Positions 395-10,996 of a stretch of 10,996 bases of DNA are shown in pieces. Below the pieces are notes generated by a model. That model worked only from the letters and a program-made list of their open reading frames with translations. It was not told where the DNA came from and did no database searches. Numbering within the stretch: the stretch's first letter is position 1; every line of letters starts with the position of its first letter. This DNA is from Polyangiales bacterium (GTDB taxonomy: Bacteria > Myxococcota_A > Polyangia > Polyangiales > Houyiibacteriaceae): positions 1 through 10,996 of the forward strand of contig JBGCFM010000126.1 in the NCBI GenBank assembly GCA_045106895.1, written 5' to 3'. A program made the translations under genes and the position numbers.

Positions 395-1786
395 CTAGTT
401 CTGAAGTGTGGTCAGGTTGTAGGAAGGCAACGAGTCCGTGTAGTTCGTGAAGGACTCGACGCCTTCCAGCGTCACGCTCACGACCTCTGCATCTTCCCCC
501 GCGGTGTGTCCGACGTGGAACATATCGTCGAACCAAACGCCCTGGCCCATGGAGAAAGCACCTTCGGATTCCCAGAGGGAGGTCGCGGTTCCGGCGGTGA
601 GGTCGACGAGGACGATCTCGTCGCTTGTGCCCGCGCCGAAGTCACCAAGGGCGAGGCCCACGATCTTGTCGGTGTCGACGGCGACGATGCTCCAGACCGC
701 CACGAGCTCGTCTTCGCCGGGCTGCCACATGGCGGTGATGGATCCGACTCCGTCGTCCGAGACGGCGAGGCGGTAGATACCGGAGGTCTCGCGGACGCCC
801 GGTCCGCCAAAGCCCACGGTGGAGTAACCCTTGCAGGCGACCATGATGTCCGTGCCGAAGCGCGCGACCTGGCCGCAGTTGGCGCCACCGGGAAGGTCCA
901 CGGCGGTGACTTCGAGCGTCGTGAGGTTCACAAGCGCGACCTGGCCTGGGCCAAAGCCGCGCGCCGCACCGGCTTGGTCGCCGGGGAGACGGTCGAGTCC
1001 GACGACGAGGGTGTTTTCGTTCGCGAGGACCATGCGGTCGGGGCGGGCGGCGATGGCGACGTCAACGACGGCGTCGCCTTCCATGCCGCTGACGGTTCCG
1101 CCGAACGCGCTCAGGTCGATGCGCATGCCGTTGCGTTCCATCGTCACGGGGTTGAAGCCGATGACATCGGAGCCGGCGTCTTCGGGCTCAGCGCCGGGGG
1201 CCGTGTTCGGATCGTAGCGCGTGACCCATGCGGTGTCCGGGCCCGTGACGGCGACGTCGTGGGGGTTGCCACCGAAGGAGTCCGTGCCGACGTTCAGCTG
1301 TCCGATGACGCCGCCGGACAAGCAGAGGTTCGTCACGACGTTCTTGCCGAAGCGATCGATGATGATGAGCTGGCCCGCCGGGGAAGCCTCCGTAGGAAAG
1401 ACCACGTCGCCGCCGAGGGTGGCGGTGAGCGATGGCGCCGTGGTGCCGCTGGTGATCCAGTCCGCCGCGGTCGTTCCGCCTCGGCTCACGACGGAGACTG
1501 CGGAGCTCGTAAAGTCGGTGCTGATCAAGGCCAACTGGGCGCCCTCGTCGATGGGGCTGAGGATCGCTTCGAGGCCGTCACAAGCGCTCACAACGGGTCC
1601 GGCGTCGGGGCCGCCGTCTACGTCGGGGCCGCCGTCTTCATCAGGGCCGGAGTCACCAGGACCGGCGTCGATGCTCAGGCCGTCGAAGCCGCCGTCCATC
1701 GGGACGCTGGAATCCATGCTCGCGTCGTCGTCGCCACAGGCGACCATGGAGAGAGCCAAAAGAAGAAGAGAAGTTATTCGAAGCAT
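395..1786 (-). CDS. Lipoprotein, predicted YncE/BtuG-like beta-propeller, partner of the cobalamin TonB receptor (463 aa)
   Basis: ATG at 1786-1784 overlaps the upstream TGA (TGATG), so it is preferred to the TTG at 1789. Signal peptide with lipobox (MLRITSLLLLALSMVA-C), acidic DGG/DAG linker, then beta-strand-rich blade-like segments (LIIIDR, NPHDVAV, AWVTRY, RPDRMV, IMVAC). Second gene under a B12 riboswitch. The fold is inferred. Confidence 0.75.
   Translation of the reverse strand: MLRITSLLLLALSMVACGDDDASMDSSVPMDGGFDGLSIDAGPGDSGPDEDGGPDVDGGPDAGPVVSACDGLEAILSPIDEGAQLALISTDFTSSAVSVVSRGGTTAADWITSGTTAPSLTATLGGDVVFPTEASPAGQLIIIDRFGKNVVTNLCLSGGVIGQLNVGTDSFGGNPHDVAVTGPDTAWVTRYDPNTAPGAEPEDAGSDVIGFNPVTMERNGMRIDLSAFGGTVSGMEGDAVVDVAIAARPDRMVLANENTLVVGLDRLPGDQAGAARGFGPGQVALVNLTTLEVTAVDLPGGANCGQVARFGTDIMVACKGYSTVGFGGPGVRETSGIYRLAVSDDGVGSITAMWQPGEDELVAVWSIVAVDTDKIVGLALGDFGAGTSDEIVLVDLTAGTATSLWESEGAFSMGQGVWFDDMFHVGHTAGEDAEVVSVTLEGVESFTNYTDSLPSYNLTTLQN
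1603..1637 (-). repeat. Short tandem repeat (17-nt identical copies, period 18) encoding the DGGP linker
   Basis: CGTCGGGGCCGCCGTCT occurs at 1603-1619 and 1621-1637 and encodes part of ...DSGPDEDGGPDVDGGPDAGP... Confidence 0.8.
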
Positions 1787-3729
1787 CAAAGGTCACTTTC
1801 TATTTGCAGAGTCGCCATCACCTGGCGGCCTGGAAGGGGGTATCCGATAAAGTCCTGCCCACGTTCATCGAGGGCGTCCCGAACGCTCAGGCCAAAGGCG
1901 AGTCCGTTCTGCATTTGAATTTGCCCGGCGAAATCGAGCCAGGTGTTCGCGGGAAGCTCGACGAAGTTCGCCGGGTCCTGAAAGAACGACGAGCGGTGTC
2001 GCAGCTGCACTTCGATGTGCGCGTTTCGTATGTTGCCCAGCGGGCCACTTTGAAGCCGCGCGCGGACACGTCCGCTGAGCGAAGGTCGCCAGTTGAGCTC
2101 CCGCTCGCGGCCGTCGTCGGTGGACAGCCAAGTGCCGTTCGCGTCGAGGACAACATGGCGCGCGAGGGTGAGCCGTGAACCGAACTCGGCTCCGGCGATG
2201 ATCGCTTCATCCACGTTTCGTGCGGCGGCTGTGTACTGGGAAGTGGGGATGAAGCGAATCAGGTCTTCGGCGCGCGTGTGAAAGCCGCGTACTTCAACGC
2301 CGACCTGCGCGAATGCCCCGGCGCTCTGAAGCACGATGCCAGCGTCCAAGGTGCGGCCCGTTTCGGCGCGAAGATCGGGGCTACGAACGACGGCGCCGCG
2401 ATCGCCAAGGAGCTCCTGGAGCGTAGGAAGCCGGCGCCCCCGCGAGGCGCTCGCGCTCACGGAGAGCCAGGAGACCGGCGCTACGAGGAGCCCAATGCGG
2501 TAGCTTGGCTGCGTGCTGGAGCTTGGGACCTGCGTGTCTGGGCCTGTCTCGCTGACGCGCGTTCGTTCGAGACGAATGCTCGGCCGCAGCTCGAGGCGGA
2601 CCGGGCCGAGCGCACCGTGAAGCCGAGCCTCCACACTGCCGAAGCCTGTCCAGCGTTGAACGCTGGGGAGCGAGGGGCCGACGGAGTCCGTGGGCGCGTA
2701 CCCGTCGAGGCGCCCGCCGCCCACGACGGTGATGTCGAGGGCGCGGTGGGGGCGAAGCACGCTCCCGGCGCGAATGAACCCGCTCGTCCATTGGTCCACG
2801 GCTTCTTCACGGCCAAAGCCAATCTCGTTGAAGCGGTCGCTGAACTTTCGCCGGTCGCTTCCCGCGCCGGCGGTGACGAAGAGCTCGTGGGCGCCCAGGT
2901 CTACGTCGTAACGGAGGGCGCCGAAGGTGTGTACGTCGTGGCGCTGCGCGTGCTGCGCGCGCGTGAGACCCGCGCCGGGTTCTCCGCCGAGGCGAGACCC
3001 CGCCATGACGAGCGCGGTGAGTCGACCCTCGTCGAGGTCGCGTTCGAGGAGCGCGATGAGCGCCGTGCGCGTTTGCTGCGCGTTGGCCCTGCGGAGCGTC
3101 CGGTCATCGTCGGTGTTGAACGCGGTGCCGTGGTCGTCCAAATAAGGGTAGTCGTTGTCGCTGCCTTCCAGGGCCAGGCGGGCGCTGAACCTCGTTCGGC
3201 CATGGTCGCGCACAAGGTTTGCGCCGCCGCCAACGCCCCACGTGGAGAACGTGCCTCCGGCAGCAAAAGCGCTCACGCTGGACTCTTGGGCGCGGTGAGG
3301 CTCTAGAACCAAGACCCCGCCGAGCGCCGCCGTGGACAGCTCCGCGGGCGCGCCGCCGCGATACACCCGGAGCGATTCGAACATGTGCGCGGAGAGCAGC
3401 CCGAGATCGAAGGCGCCGCTGTCTGGGCCTCGCAGGGGAATGCCGCCAAGGACGACTTCCGTCTGCGCGAGTTCCGCGCCACGCAGCCGCAAATAGCTCG
3501 CCGCGCCAAGGCCACCGGTCTGGGCGACCTGGGCTCCTGGCACACGCGCGAGGGCCGTATTCAGGTCGTCGCTCTCCTCGATCTCCACGCTGCTGCCGGC
3601 GGCGGTTCGGTCCGCGTCGTCGCTCGCCACCGGCGGCGCTTCGACCTCGGCACGTGCGCCGTACTGCGCATGGGTGCGTCCACTCCAGAGGAGTGCGAGG
3701 ACGGCCAGTAGTGCAGGGAGGTGTTTCAA
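1786..3729 (-). CDS. btuB: TonB-dependent outer membrane receptor, BtuB-like (cobalamin uptake), 647 aa
   Basis: TTG start with signal peptide (MKHLPALLAVLALLWSGRTHA-Q). Plug motif LARVPG...GGLG...LRLRG...VVLGGIPL...LRVYRG...ALGGVLVL; barrel motifs GRRLPTLQEL, PDLRAETGRTLDAG; terminal SVRDALD...GYPLPGR. The substrate is assigned from the cobalamin riboswitch directly upstream. Confidence 0.85.
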   Translation of the reverse strand: MKHLPALLAVLALLWSGRTHAQYGARAEVEAPPVASDDADRTAAGSSVEIEESDDLNTALARVPGAQVAQTGGLGAASYLRLRGAELAQTEVVLGGIPLRGPDSGAFDLGLLSAHMFESLRVYRGGAPAELSTAALGGVLVLEPHRAQESSVSAFAAGGTFSTWGVGGGANLVRDHGRTRFSARLALEGSDNDYPYLDDHGTAFNTDDDRTLRRANAQQTRTALIALLERDLDEGRLTALVMAGSRLGGEPGAGLTRAQHAQRHDVHTFGALRYDVDLGAHELFVTAGAGSDRRKFSDRFNEIGFGREEAVDQWTSGFIRAGSVLRPHRALDITVVGGGRLDGYAPTDSVGPSLPSVQRWTGFGSVEARLHGALGPVRLELRPSIRLERTRVSETGPDTQVPSSSTQPSYRIGLLVAPVSWLSVSASASRGRRLPTLQELLGDRGAVVRSPDLRAETGRTLDAGIVLQSAGAFAQVGVEVRGFHTRAEDLIRFIPTSQYTAAARNVDEAIIAGAEFGSRLTLARHVVLDANGTWLSTDDGRERELNWRPSLSGRVRARLQSGPLGNIRNAHIEVQLRHRSSFFQDPANFVELPANTWLDFAGQIQMQNGLAFGLSVRDALDERGQDFIGYPLPGRQVMATLQIESDL

Positions 3730-4167: not shown

Positions 4168-4620
4168 ATGATCGCGCTTGGGGTCCTCGTCCTGTCGGTG
4201 TTTTTCGGGCCCGCTGTGCTCGGCGGTCCGGCCTTCGCAGACGCGGACTGTTGCGCCTCCTGTCACAGCGATGAGCCCGGCTCACAAACCGCGAACTACG
4301 CCAAAAACGTCCACGCGGAGCCGGACGACTGCTGTCCAAGTGCGACGACCAAGCACACTGCGAATGCCAGCGCTTCCTCGCATGGCCACTCGCATGCGAG
4401 TGACCACAGCGATCACAGCGACGACACGGCTCCCGATCATGACTGCCCCGACGACTGTCCGGGCTGCGATCTGGGGTTGAGTTTCGCCGTCACGATGAAC
4501 TCGTCTTTGCGCGTGAACTTTGTGCCTCTGATGTCGGACACCTGTGCTCTGGCTTCGCACGAGACGCCGGCGACGGGCACTTGCGCCGGCATCTATCGAC
4601 CGCCGCGATCTCTCTCCTAA
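4168..4620 (+). CDS. Small exported Cys/His-rich protein, DUF2946/CzcI-like leader ORF with C-terminal RPP motif (150 aa)
   Basis: SD GGAG lies 5 nt before ATG 4168 (preferred to TTG 4111). Hydrophobic signal ending AFA-D; 10 Cys and 10 His (CCASCH, DDCC, HGHSHASDHSDH, CPDDCPGC); ends GIYRPPRSLS. First gene ahead of a metal RND operon. Confidence 0.75.
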   Translation: MIALGVLVLSVFFGPAVLGGPAFADADCCASCHSDEPGSQTANYAKNVHAEPDDCCPSATTKHTANASASSHGHSHASDHSDHSDDTAPDHDCPDDCPGCDLGLSFAVTMNSSLRVNFVPLMSDTCALASHETPATGTCAGIYRPPRSLS

Positions 4621-4718: not shown

Positions 4719-5939
4719 ATGTTTAGATGGAGCCTCATTGGCTTCCTGTGTGTCGTGTCGTGGCAGCTGCCGGCACGCGCGCAGGACCAAGCAATGGACA
4801 TAACGCTTGAGAGGGCGCTCGCGATGGCGCGCCAAAGCTCGCCCGAAGCCGCGGGCAGGGAGGCGCGCGCTCGTCTCGCTTCGAGTCGTCTCGAGGCGGC
4901 CTCCGTTCGCCCGTTCAACCCACAGATCTCGGGTTCGCTGGGCCCGCGCTTCGGTGAAGCAGGGACGAGGCTCAACGGCTCGGTGCAGATTCGGCAATGG
5001 TTTGAGTTAGGCGGCCAAAGAGGCGACCGCCAAGACATCGCTCGCGCCGGAGTCGAGTCCCAAGAAGCGCGAAGCGCTCGCCGGATGCACCTCGTCGAGC
5101 GTGATGTGAGCCTGGCTTTCTTCCGCGCTTTGTACTGGGAGCAGCGCGTGGAACTATTCGAGGAGAGCCTCCGCGTCGCGAACGCTGTCCTCGCGAGCGC
5201 GAGGAGTCGCCACGAGCTTGGCGACGCCGGCGGGCTGGAGTCGTCCCTCGCGACCATCGCCGCGGCGCGCGCTGACACGGAGATGCAGAGCGCCCGCGTC
5301 TCCTCGCTCCGCGCCCTTGGCGAGTTGAAGGTCCTCCTCGGAGTTCGCGCTGACGTTTCGCTTCGAGTGCGTGGAGACCTTCGAGCTCTCGGCGTGGCGC
5401 CTGTGGAGCCTCGACCTTCCGATGGTGCGGAGCGCGCCGATCTGCGTGCTTTGCGTGCCGAGGTCCGCGGCGCCCGCGCCGAGGCGGAGCTGGGACGCGC
5501 GAGCCGTTGGCCGAACTTCGCCCTCGGCGCTCGCTACGCCAGGGACGAGGCCGACGACGTTGTCCAAGGCATCTTCAGTATCCAGCTGCCCTTCTTCGAC
5601 CGTGGCCAGGGGGAAGTCGCCATCGCCTCCGCGCGCGAAGAGGTGGCCCAACGACAGCTCGAATCGGCGACGATGGCCGCATCCGTGGAGCTGGACACAT
5701 CTCAGCGTGCCGCGCGCGCTCTCTCCCGCGCCGCGCGCCAGTTTGAAGCCACGGGCTTGCCGGCGCTTGCGCGGGCCGAAGAGCTAGCGACGGGAAACTA
5801 CGAAGCCGGCGCGGTTCCCCTCGCGGAGCTTCTCCTCATTCGGCGTGAGCTCCTTCACGCCAGAACAACGTATCTCGACCAGCTCTTTGAAGCCGCAGCG
5901 GCGCAAGCCGAACTCGTCGCCCAAAGAGGTGCGCGATGA
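4719..5939 (+). CDS. czcC: TolC-family outer membrane efflux protein, CzcC-like (406 aa)
   Basis: SD GGGAG at 4708-4712; signal peptide; OEP motifs ITLERALAMARQSSP, NPQIS, IRQWFELGGQRG, RADLRAL, SIQLPFFDRGQG, NYEAGAVPLAELL. Upstream of MFP and RND genes. Confidence 0.88.
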   Translation: MFRWSLIGFLCVVSWQLPARAQDQAMDITLERALAMARQSSPEAAGREARARLASSRLEAASVRPFNPQISGSLGPRFGEAGTRLNGSVQIRQWFELGGQRGDRQDIARAGVESQEARSARRMHLVERDVSLAFFRALYWEQRVELFEESLRVANAVLASARSRHELGDAGGLESSLATIAAARADTEMQSARVSSLRALGELKVLLGVRADVSLRVRGDLRALGVAPVEPRPSDGAERADLRALRAEVRGARAEAELGRASRWPNFALGARYARDEADDVVQGIFSIQLPFFDRGQGEVAIASAREEVAQRQLESATMAASVELDTSQRAARALSRAARQFEATGLPALARAEELATGNYEAGAVPLAELLLIRRELLHARTTYLDQLFEAAAAQAELVAQRGAR

Positions 5940-6337
5940 CTACGAATACTGAATCCAGAACGAAAGAATCACTCATGTACTTTGCTCGACTCCGCTGTGC
6001 CCTTCGAGTCTCTTCACTTCTGACCTTGGCGCTCCTCGCCGCCTGCGAGGAAGTCCCAGAGCCAACAGAACAAACCGTGAATGCGGAAGAGGGCGTGCAA
6101 ACGAGCGCCGTCGAACACGCACCTGCCGGCGCCGTCCCGGGCTCTCACGAAGATTGGTGCGGAGGCCACGGCGTCCCGGAGTCTTTGTGCACGCGTTGCA
6201 ACCCGAGGCTCATCGGTGCGTTCCAGGCCACGGGTGATTGGTGCCCCGAGCACAACTTGCCGGAATCGCAGTGCACCATCTGCAACCCAGACCTGGTCAT
6301 CGAGCGTCCGCCCCGCACAAACGAAGCAGCCCCATGA
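5936..6337 (+). CDS. Small lipoprotein carrying one pair of C-x2-H-x6-C-x2-C motifs (putative periplasmic metal-binding accessory protein)
   Basis: ATGA overlaps at both ends (5936-5939, 6334-6337); alternative start ATG 5975. Lipobox LLAA-C (Cys at 6044). Contains DWCGGHGVPESLCTRCNP-RLIGAFQATG-DWCPEHNLPESQCTICNP at 6152-6289. Confidence 0.85.
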   Translation: MTTNTESRTKESLMYFARLRCALRVSSLLTLALLAACEEVPEPTEQTVNAEEGVQTSAVEHAPAGAVPGSHEDWCGGHGVPESLCTRCNPRLIGAFQATGDWCPEHNLPESQCTICNPDLVIERPPRTNEAAP

Positions 6338-8087
6338 AGCGCGACCGCGCTCAGCGCTATTCTAACTTCGCGCGCGTGCTCTTCCTGGCTTTGGCGCTCT
6401 GCGGCGCATGCGAAGAGCCCGTGCAGCCCGACGTGGAAGCCGCCGCTGCGGTGGAAGCCGCTGCGGCAGCATCTCACGCCGCCGAGCCACGCGCCGACGG
6501 CGCGTGCGAACACCACTTGCCAGCGGGGCTCTGTCCAAAGTGCGAGCCGTCTTTGGCGGCGGTCTACCAAGCCCAAGGAGATTGGTGTGACGAGCACGGT
6601 TTTCCGGAGTCGTTCTGTCCCGTGTGCAATCCGGGCGCCGTGATCCCGGCAGTGGACGCGCCCGCGCCTTCGGGTGGAACCACGCCAAGTGACTGGTGCG
6701 GAGGCCACGCCCTGCCCGAGTCCCAGTGCACCAAGTGCAACCCTTCGCTCATTCCGCGCTTCCGCGCCGCCGGCGACTACTGCGAAGAACACGGCTTCCC
6801 GGAATCCGTGTGTCCTGTGTGTAATCCTCAAACGCCGCCGGCTGGACCCGTCTCCGATTGGTGCGTCGAACATGGTCTTCCGGAGTCCAGCTGCACCTTG
6901 TGCAACCCCTCGCTCACTCCGCGCTTTGTGGCCGCCGGAGACTACTGCGAGGAGCACGGTTTCCCCGAGTCTTTGTGTCCCGTCTGCAATCCCCAAGCGG
7001 CGCCTCCTGGCGCGGAGCGAGCGTCCATCGAAGCGCGCGTCGTTCGCTTTCGCACGCCGGACATTGAATCGTCCGCCGGCATCGACACCGTCGTGGCCGT
7101 CGCCGCCGAAGCGTCGGCTTCCATCGAATGTACCGGACGCATCGCCTTTCACGGTGACCGCATTGCGGAAGTTCGGGCCATCGTCCCCGGCATCGTTCGG
7201 GGTGTTCGCGTCGCTCTTGGCGAGGAGGTCGAAGCCGGCGCTCGACTCTTCGACTTGGAAAGCACGCAGGTCGGCCAGACCCAAGGGATCCTCGTTGCTG
7301 CGCGAGAGCGCGTTCGAGCGGCGGAGCTACATCTCGCACGGCAACGTGAGCTACAAGGGAGAGATATCGCCTCGGCGAGACAGGTAGAGATCGCCGAACA
7401 AGAACTGAGCGTAGCTCAAGCCGAAGCGCGAACAGCCACGGCGACATTGCGGATGGCTGGCGCTGCGCGTTCGGGTTCGTCCGGTCGCTACTCTCTGACT
7501 GCGCCCATTGCCGGGACCGTCGTGCGACGGCCGGCGGTCATCGGGCGTTTGGCAACGGAGAGCGAATCCCTCGCGACCATCGCCGACACAAGCGTCATGT
7601 GGGTGATGTGTGACATCCCTGAAGCCGCCGCATCGCGCATCGCGCTCGGCCAGCGCGTCGTCGTGAACGTGGATGGTCAAGGAAGCGAGACCGTGGGCGA
7701 GATCACCTGGGTATCGACGGAAGTCGACCCTCGTTCACGAACCGTCACGACACGCGCCGAGTTGCCCAACCCCGATGGAACGTTGCGCGCAAACCAGTTC
7801 GCCCAAGCGCGGGTGCAAACCGGCGCGCCGAGGAACGCTGTGGCCGTTCCTCGTAGCGCCGTTCAGCGGGTAGATCACCTGGAGGTCGTCTTCGTCCGCG
7901 TCTCGCCCGGCGTCTTTGAGCCACGCGTCGTCGAGCGTCACGGTGGCGGCGAATCCGTACAGGTGGTGGGACGCGTTCGCGCCGGCGATTCCGTGGTCAC
8001 GACCGGCGCGGTGTTGCTTCGAACGGAGATCATGCCTGGCAGCATCGGGGCTGGCTGCTGCGAAGTAGAGACCGGAAGCGCGGACTG

Positions 8088-8088
<1 letters not shown>
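6334..8088 (+). CDS. czcB: RND periplasmic adaptor (membrane fusion protein), CzcB-like, with N-terminal Cys/His repeat array (584 aa)
   Basis: ATG 6334 overlaps the upstream stop (the ORF-track start at 6238 is unlikely). N-terminal anchor/possible lipobox LALALCGA-C. MFP motifs GRIAF..EVRAIVPGIVRGVRVALGEEVEAGARL, LTAPIAGTV, IADTSVMWV, VDPRSRTVTTRAELPNPDGTLRANQF, VAVPRSAVQ, GDSVVTTGAVLL. Confidence 0.9.
6499..6993 (+). repeat. Intragenic repeat array: three paired Cys/His modules (six motifs)
   Basis: Module A 6499-6633, module B 6691-6828, module C 6856-6993 (B and C are 165 nt apart). Consensus D[WY]C-x2-H-x-[FL]PES-x-C-x2-CNP; the first motif is one residue shorter (CEHHLPAGLCPKCEP). Confidence 0.92.

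Positions 8089-10996
<2,908 letters not shown>

Follow-up and report, generated by a model that had tools for sequence, protein, structure and literature searches.

What does a small, cysteine-rich lipoprotein do in the middle of an operon for heavy-metal efflux? The question is raised by a gene, called S here, that lies at positions 5936 to 6337 of a 10,996-nucleotide stretch of DNA (the window; contig JBGCFM010000126.1 of assembly GCA_045106895.1) from a bacterium of the order Polyangiales. S stands between the genes for the outer-membrane factor (czcC type) and the periplasmic adaptor (czcB type) of a heavy-metal efflux pump of the resistance-nodulation-division superfamily (HME-RND). Read from its sequence, S probably serves as an accessory metal-binding partner of such pumps, built from an undescribed domain. 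The gene and the parts of its product are as follows.

5936-6337, + strand: gene S, coding for a lipoprotein precursor of 133 residues (open reading frame list)
5936-6046, + strand: signal peptide with the lipobox L-A-A-C37; the Cys37 codon (6044-6046) specifies the residue that is predicted to carry the lipid and to begin the mature protein
6047-6115, + strand: tether E38-E60 of about 23 residues, with no conserved columns and an AlphaFold2 (AF2) confidence (predicted local distance difference test, pLDDT) of 44-68
6116-6316, + strand: folded domain H61-R127 of about 70 residues, delimited by AF2 confidence and conservation
6158-6199, + strand: half-site 1, C75-x2-H78-x6-C85-x2-C88, read from the sequence
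6242-6283, + strand: half-site 2, C103-x2-H106-x6-C113-x2-C116, read from the sequence

Behind the hydrophobic stretch of the signal, L-A-A-C37 agrees with the lipobox pattern of signal peptidase II substrates, [LVI][ASTVI][GAS]-C, and its cysteine does not vary among 25 homologues and is kept in at least 90% of a set of 128. A preliminary description of this locus, made from the DNA alone, had proposed a separate, translationally coupled frame consisting of a lipoprotein signal, a flexible tether and one pair of Cys-His-Cys-Cys (CHCC) half-sites, the paired module, joined by the ten-residue linker RLIGAFQATG. This anatomy was confirmed from the sequence, and so was the coupling, with an ATGA overlap at both ends of the gene. 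The ATG of S (5936-5938) overlaps the czcC stop TGA (5937-5939) within the ATGA at 5936-5939, and the S stop TGA (6335-6337) overlaps the czcB ATG (6334-6336) within that at 6334-6337. What had been overlooked are the conserved flanks that are specific to S, namely H61-A-P-A-G-A-V-P-G-S-H71-E-D-W before the module and the tail D-L-V-I-E-R-P-P-R (L120-x-I122-x-R124-P125-P126) after it. In a public protein collection, translation starts from the second ATG at 5975, giving 120 residues and an identical mature protein. The gene is intact, without insertions or deletions, in contigs of sequencing runs from three other studies. Five differences were seen there: A22V lies in the signal and Q46R in the tether, and the three within the folded part are silent. 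Small as these numbers are, they fit purifying selection.

S is a real, conserved gene of a widespread and unnamed family. A word-indexed search of 5.8 billion proteins, in which small homologues were taken as those of 73-233 residues at E<=0.001, returned 902 candidates, and 878 of them are small homologues of S; with that many at such a threshold, the match is not due to chance. Those that bear a name at all are called 'hypothetical protein', from taxa given as Myxococcota and Polyangiales. When 1.84 billion cluster representatives (50% identity) were searched exhaustively, 679 matched at E<=0.001, of which 369 reach 1e-10 and 38 reach 1e-30; the 679 are small proteins mixed with adaptors of 450-850 residues. 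Planctomycetota, Gemmatimonadota, Bdellovibrionales and others also appear in record titles or Atlas taxa, with the labels taken unchecked. Pfam and NCBIfam hold no family for S. No description of the CHCC module or of the S protein was found in the full-text literature outside subscription journals, including term look-ups in the available text of the reviews PMC8277102 and PMC13328181.

Across 128 small proteins, the residues that are invariant or at least 90% conserved comprise the lipobox cysteine, all eight ligands, H61/A62, P68-G69-S70-H71-E72-D73, L120, I122 and R124-P125-P126. Residues other than the ligands (W, P-E-S, N-P and the S-specific flanks) are themselves near-invariant. C-H-C-C was found in 338 of 345 half-sites; a cysteine is replaced by histidine at ligand 4 in four and at ligand 1 in one, and the remaining two are one-residue register variants. 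This count is limited to canonical spacing with Cys or His at all four positions and misses sites that have lost a ligand; such losses are covered by the alignment statistics, where conservation of the ligands is either complete or at least 90%.

The distribution of the system is patchy and accessory across the phylum. In an even phylum sample of 301 genomes, the source genome included, 40 have a module match at E<=1e-20, and 22 of those 40 have a full-length S-type match (read from the match rows), two of them in two copies. Within the family of the source genome, the figure is one of the 18 other genomes. The source genome itself (7.7 Mb, 96% complete) carries the module in this operon only. 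A genome of the same genus (83% complete) has S together with a module-bearing open frame of 650 residues, presumably the adaptor, and a second one (74% complete) gave no match.

The operon in which S lies is an HME-RND tripartite efflux operon of the CzcCBA/ZneCAB type, in which pump, adaptor and outer-membrane factor each score above curated cut-offs. Its other features are these.

4719-5939, + strand: czcC-type outer-membrane factor gene (Pfam OEP, PF02321, E 2e-29, score 103 against a cut-off of 22)
5924-5931, + strand: Shine-Dalgarno-like site AAGAGGTG, read from the sequence, ending 4 nt before the S ATG at 5936
6334-8088, + strand: czcB-type periplasmic adaptor gene, 584 residues with its own lipoprotein-type signal (HlyD_D23, 7.8e-36; TIGR01730, 142.2 bits against a cut-off of 94.9)
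6505-6987, + strand: three paired CHCC modules (six half-sites, ten-residue linkers) in the N-terminal extension of the adaptor, located by regular expression
8047-8061, + strand: G-A-G-C-C at the adaptor C-terminus (within S-I-G-A-G-C-C-E-V-E), invariant in 43 of 43 aligned adaptors that follow S
8088-10994, + strand: czcA/zneA-type HME-RND pump gene, running off the window (TIGR00914, 1070.6 bits against a cut-off of 701)
9261-9305, + strand: motif DFG-x3-DSS-x3-VEN in the fourth transmembrane segment of the pump, located by alignment

The adaptor stop and the pump ATG overlap by one base. Matches of the czcC product to the IhpA/NodT/TolC families of NCBIfam are weak. In contigs of two other runs, the Shine-Dalgarno-like site carries A5924G.

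Whether S keeps this company elsewhere was read from one genome per species. The scan gave 195 candidate stretches. A relative is encoded in 189 of them, and the neighbourhoods of the best 80 of these were read. S is followed by an adaptor core on its own strand in 73 of the 80, which makes the S-B adjacency 73 out of 73 informative loci (B being the adaptor gene); in the other seven, the contig ends 135-655 nt past S, and five of them show the start of a module-bearing gene. A gene for a CzcA-type pump (A) comes next in 70 of the 73 loci, the other three running out of sequence. From the stop of S to the start of the adaptor, 71 calls gave a 4-nt overlap in 23 cases and a distance of 1 nt in 20; as the adaptor starts were called heuristically, most other spacings are artefacts, and 'gaps' of -52 to -68 come from an upstream GTG. 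The neighbourhood expected in the preliminary description was therefore found as far as the module-bearing adaptor and the CzcA/ZneA-type pump are concerned, with S-B-A in all 73 informative loci. It had also compared S with CusF, whose gene stands between the C and B genes of cusCFBA. This position is real in the window, but it is not a conserved feature. By tblastn, a czcC-like gene precedes S in 27 of 80 loci (two partial), and Pfam adds one more (L027), giving about 28 of 76 informative loci, four having too little upstream DNA for the call. The conserved unit is, therefore, S-B-A, and C-S-B is one arrangement among several. Elsewhere, S opens S-B-A or comes after a CzcI-like gene. In a Pfam scan of 102 upstream open reading frames from the 51 loci without a czcC match by tblastn, the upstream genes were otherwise unrelated ones, several of them metal-related: cation diffusion facilitators (CDF), P-type ATPases, ArsR, ArsP permease, multicopper oxidase, MerT-HMA and chromate transporter.

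That S might be a frameshifted piece of a longer adaptor, the case which had been named as fatal to its being a component in its own right, was not borne out, as S and B form two distinct genes in 72 of 73 loci. Some adaptors that lie beside an intact S are disrupted. One carries an in-frame TAG (L057:4257-5630), and the N-terminal or core region is frameshifted or truncated in three others (L010, L047 and L080). Errors of assembly or decay of the operons may be the cause.

The module of S recurs on its neighbour. The S profile matches the adaptor of the window at 6376-6645, 6667-6831 and 6844-6996, and the first module pair of the adaptor does not vary in an alignment of 43 adaptors. Of 71 downstream adaptors, at least 68 have the strict paired module; two others have a Cys-to-His variant pair, and the last was mis-called. 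A single frame at one locus (L018) holds a signal, a tether, a complete S domain with both S flanks and then, behind a pair of the adaptor type, the adaptor core; it has no further signal. This is a true in-frame fusion of S and B and not a read-through of the overlap. Two further adaptors (P0217, P0232) start with S-type pairs, and in another two (P0226, P0239) the modules are C-terminal, past the HlyD core, instead of N-terminal. Of 47 mid-length or long representatives, 20 show only the adaptor's own domain (HlyD_D23, sometimes HlyD_3 or Biotin_lipoyl_2), two have sub-threshold matches of chance type (Ish1, DUF5363), and none turned up in the remainder, many of which are fragments at contig ends. 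Most of the representatives have the module at the N-terminus, and two have it at the C-terminus. Heavy-metal adaptors and their small partners thus seem to be the only places where the module occurs.

The relation between the free and the attached modules was approached with a tree of 182 paired modules from the S proteins and adaptors of 81 loci, which, at 48 columns, has low resolution. All 79 S pairs fall on one side of a branch with a Shimodaira-Hasegawa-like approximate likelihood ratio (SH-aLRT) support of 97, and the sole intruder among them, L010_B1, is a long branch from a frameshifted adaptor. In the window, the S pair and the adaptor pairs each have their nearest neighbours among pairs of their own kind from other genomes. 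Since the S modules form one clade apart from the adaptor pairs, S is no recent copy of the 5' end of czcB, and the duplication suggested earlier is unsupported as a recent event. Should S and the adaptor array have a common ancestor, the tree points to an old split. The likeness of the mature N-termini, CEEVPEP in S and CEEPVQP in the adaptor, which had been pointed out earlier, holds in the window and in its nearest relative (L001) but is no general feature: S and B agree in the residue that follows the lipid-bearing cysteine in 10 of 58 loci.

As for the fold, the AF2 model built with 128 sequences has a pLDDT of 95-98 over residues 48-117 of the 120-residue form, and signal and tether are of low confidence. 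One helix, formed by the linker, is predicted, and otherwise beta-bridges only. A sequence search of the PDB with the S family (hmmsearch) gave no match (best E 0.41), Foldseek with the model gave 0 matches at E<=10, and VIA-align found 0 of 48,161 chains with Z>=2. These null searches are no proof of a new fold, as small knuckles with little secondary structure, such as the model suggests, are hard for aligners. A eukaryote-type B-box zinc finger (PF25287, Trim66) was tried and set aside, because its 19.2 bits fall below the cut-off of 27 and the likeness lies in the shared knuckle pattern only.

The pump gives a hint of the metal. Its closest solved chain is that of ZneA (4k0e, 1.7e-70), followed by CusA (6e-50). 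The available text of PMC3637150 gives DFG-x3-DGA-x3-VEN as the motif of divalent-cation pumps of the HME1/HME2 groups in this transmembrane segment. The pump of the window keeps the charged D, D and E, with GA replaced by SS. At the positions of CusA Met573/623/672 it has I, V and E by our own reading of the alignment. A substrate of the Zn/Cd/Co type is likely on these sequence features.

Among known systems, the closest parallel is CusF of the Cu(I)/Ag(I) operon cusCFBA of E. coli. As far as the available text of PMC4446572 goes, CusF, the N-terminus of CusB and the CusF-like C-terminal domain of SilB exchange metal and occur both free and fused, and with that of PMC8277102 it provides the precedent of a relay from CusF to the CusB N-terminus and on to CusA. 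This precedent supports the reading that S and the adaptor modules exchange metal. Like CusF, S would be a small periplasmic accessory encoded beside an HME-RND adaptor gene; its module, too, occurs free and fused to adaptors (in the L018 fusion, in the N-terminal arrays and at the C-termini of P0226 and P0239, which mirror SilB); and the likely role of CusF, feeding metal to the adaptor, may be shared (PMC4446572 and PMC8277102, in their available text). The differences are also many. CusF is an OB-type beta-barrel, whereas the S model has two knuckles joined by one helix. CusF binds through a Met2His set with Trp, whereas the ligands of S are Cys3His, with no conserved Met. CusF is soluble and S is predicted to be lipid-anchored, the pump of CusF is CusA and that of S is ZneA/CzcA-like, and, as already said, the position between C and B is held in about 28 of 76 S loci. 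Membership of S in the CusF family was rejected: there is no Pfam match at E<=0.01, no beta-barrel in the AF2 model and no conserved Met. The N-terminal region of CusB (Met21/36/38), according to the available text of PMC4446572, is likewise a flexible extension of an HME adaptor that passes metal from a free chaperone to the pump. Its site is short, single and methionine-based, whereas the adaptors here carry one to three folded Cys3His pairs.

The HMBD domain (PF19335, C-x-M-H...C-P-x-C-G-M), found in CusB-like adaptors and P1B ATPases, resembles the S module in another way. It has the same ligand order, Cys-x2-His...Cys-x2-Cys, it is small, it sits at the N-terminus of metal-pump adaptors and it also has small stand-alone forms. 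In contrast, its loop from His to Cys has 10 residues, as against 6 in S, the flanking consensus is different, and, unlike HMBD, the S sites come in fixed pairs with a helical linker. S was rejected as a member: PF19335 matches two other places in the source genome (54 and 48 bits), and there was no match in the window or in the scans of the S family. Remote kinship was rejected likewise, as hhalign of 128 S against 24 HMBD segments gave a probability of 3.8% over 13 columns around one CxxC. The two HMBD units of the source genome lie at G000:C73:25311-25391 (L086) and G000:C240:17177-17257 (L085); one is in an open frame of 82 residues, a small stand-alone protein, and the other is at the start of a frame of 582 residues. 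Two different CHCC-type systems, therefore, coexist in this genome.

A further likeness is to MerP and MerT of mercury resistance, in which a cysteine-based binder in the periplasm passes a thiophilic metal on to paired cysteines of a membrane partner, as is proposed here for S. Unlike S, MerP has a ferredoxin-like HMA fold and serves import, not RND export, and no relation in sequence came to light, though no search aimed at one was made.

An accessory role like that of CusF is the most economical reading. S would bind metal in the periplasm as a partner of the pump and exchange Zn/Cd-type ions with the adaptor modules, as a member of neither the CusF nor the HMBD family; we hold this with moderate confidence. 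In this mechanism, S would be a lipoprotein facing the periplasm, with a 70-residue domain holding two tetrahedral Cys3His sites. As a paralogue of the modules on the N-terminus of its cognate adaptor, it would have parted from them long ago and would now stand free. It would be made together with the adaptor and with a ZneA/CzcA-type RND pump for divalent cations. At the membrane surface, it would bind a thiophilic divalent metal (Zn2+, Cd2+ or Co2+ type) and swap ligands with the homologous sites of the adaptor, which would then present the metal to the pump. The logic would be that of CusF, the CusB N-terminus and CusA, achieved with a different, unnamed domain. We infer metal binding, the identity of the metal, its transfer and the direction of transfer, and the membrane in which S is anchored.

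Several points weigh against this reading. Only 22 of the 40 module-bearing genomes have a full-length S, so module-bearing adaptors can work without it. The neighbours at other loci are of mixed metals (multicopper oxidase, MerT-HMA, P-type ATPases, CDF, ArsR), and the pump has DSS rather than the canonical DGA, which leaves its substrate assigned by similarity only. Cys3His is typical of tight structural zinc and would be a poor donor unless ligands are exchanged directly, and free thiols may oxidise in the oxidising periplasm. It may instead be the His flank specific to S (H61, H71) that forms the labile site, or this flank may serve as a surface for docking. Finally, there is no experiment of any kind on the S family.

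The first rival explanation takes the zinc to be structural. The CHCC mini-fingers would be permanently metallated, and S would be a stoichiometric assembly or gating subunit that tunes the pump as a 'switch', docking on the adaptor modules or on the pump, possibly via its His flank and RPPR tail. In its favour, Cys3His is the classic ligand set of structural zinc, and the near-invariance of surface residues other than the ligands (W, P-E-S, N-P and the S flanks) would suit an interaction module. The family also has the sub-threshold Pfam likeness to zinc fingers (Trim66 B-box, below the cut-off in 24 of 25 S members, best E 2e-4), the RPP[RK] motif at the C-termini of S and of the upstream protein U, described below, resembles a docking peptide, and adaptors without S exist. 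We nevertheless consider this rather unlikely. Structural zinc fingers are rare in the periplasm, and the context of S is exclusively that of heavy-metal pumps. With one to three pairs on each adaptor, set on flexible linkers at one end or the other, the modules look more like a capture array than a docking site.

Alternatively, S could be a metal sponge or buffer that, like SilE, PcoE or CopK, keeps toxic metal bound at the membrane with no hand-over to the pump. A small lipoprotein of an abundant type, with two sites of a high-affinity type and with metal-resistance genes around it, would suit such a task. Two sites per molecule make for a small capacity, however, and the strict adjacency and overlap with the adaptor gene, along with the natural fusion, point to S working with the pump rather than alone. 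A sponge is, in our judgement, improbable.

A disulfide-rich or thiol-redox domain is much harder to defend. Here the six cysteines would form disulfides, or a CxxC redox pair, and S would have a redox or folding role for the pump. S is predicted to be exported, it has two CxxC motifs, and a look-alike structural cluster in the ESM Atlas is annotated as a TlpA-type thiol-disulfide reductase, a lead only, as its template-modelling score of 0.42 is under the bar of 0.5. A fusion to a TlpA-type thioredoxin, which this cluster had suggested, was not upheld, for no thioredoxin domain was present in the 47 representatives. The sequences favour the cysteines as metal ligands rather than as disulfides, because the substitutions seen among ligands are from Cys to His only (5 cases), which keeps a ligand but would break a disulfide, and because each half-site has three cysteines, an odd number; the histidines are also invariant. 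A redox role is thus very improbable.

Barely credible is a recent by-product of czcB, a 5' piece that was duplicated or split off and has no function of its own, for which the shared module and linker length and the like N-termini of the window and L001 can be cited, against the separate clustering of all 79 S pairs (SH-aLRT 97), the conserved S flanks that adaptor modules lack, the separate S and B genes in 72 of 73 loci and N-termini that are unlike elsewhere (equal at the second position in 10 of 58).

Further parts of the operon may extend the accessory role that is preferred here for S. The first of them lies upstream.

4168-4620, + strand: U, a small Cys/His-rich open reading frame (open reading frame list)

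U ends 98 nt upstream of czcC. Its product has a signal or transmembrane segment, CC/CxxC motifs, a His/Asp-rich stretch, CPDDCPGC and a second hydrophobic stretch, and its C-terminus is G-I-Y-R-P-P-R. Pfam and NCBIfam hold no family for it. A relative of U stands upstream of (C-)S-B-A on the same strand in 14 of 80 loci (tblastn, E<=1e-4). By language-model features, U is near DUF2946/CzcI clusters, which is a lead only, and it is possible that it is a CzcI/DUF2946-like fifth component. S and U share a C-terminal pattern, hydrophobic-x-R-P-P-[RK], as L-x-I-x-R-P-P-R in the S tail (6299-6316) and as [VI]-[FY]-R-P-P-R in the U tail (4588-4605). This RPP[RK] may be a shared docking peptide.

At the other end of the chain stand the C-terminal residues G572, A573, G574, C575 and C576 of the adaptor, all of them invariant (43 of 43). 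GAGCC also ends many module-bearing adaptors of other lineages, and it is possibly a further thiolate site near the pump. Taken together, U, RPP[RK] and GAGCC are sequence features that suggest a longer thiolate relay. That U, S, the adaptor arrays and the Cys-Cys at the adaptor C-terminus make up a complete thiolate relay for a divalent-metal RND pump, with U and S docking via RPP[RK], we take to be unlikely as a whole. Domain libraries contain none of the parts of this relay. If true, it would make the domain a periplasmic metallochaperone of a new class, and it would be the first route by which a chaperone feeds an RND pump of the Zn/Cd type.

On the opposite strand, two genes are divergent from the metal operon. 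One encodes a TonB-dependent receptor (1786-3729, - strand) with plug and beta-barrel. It is followed by a gene for a predicted lipoprotein of 464 residues (395-1789, - strand; MMLRITSLLLLALSMVAC...), which has no family in Pfam or NCBIfam.

To our knowledge, CusF, CusB and CusA, which handle Cu(I)/Ag(I), form the only well-studied relay of chaperone, adaptor and pump in RND metal efflux, and the route by which periplasmic metal enters pumps of the zinc/cadmium type is still argued. The S family defines an unnamed domain family whose members are now annotated as 'hypothetical', and its unit of 46 residues with two Cys3His sites may be of interest for the design of metal-binding proteins. As a widespread and strictly pump-linked module that occurs free, arrayed and fused, it provides a concrete and testable candidate for a relay that would serve Zn/Cd-type pumps in Myxococcota and maybe in other phyla.

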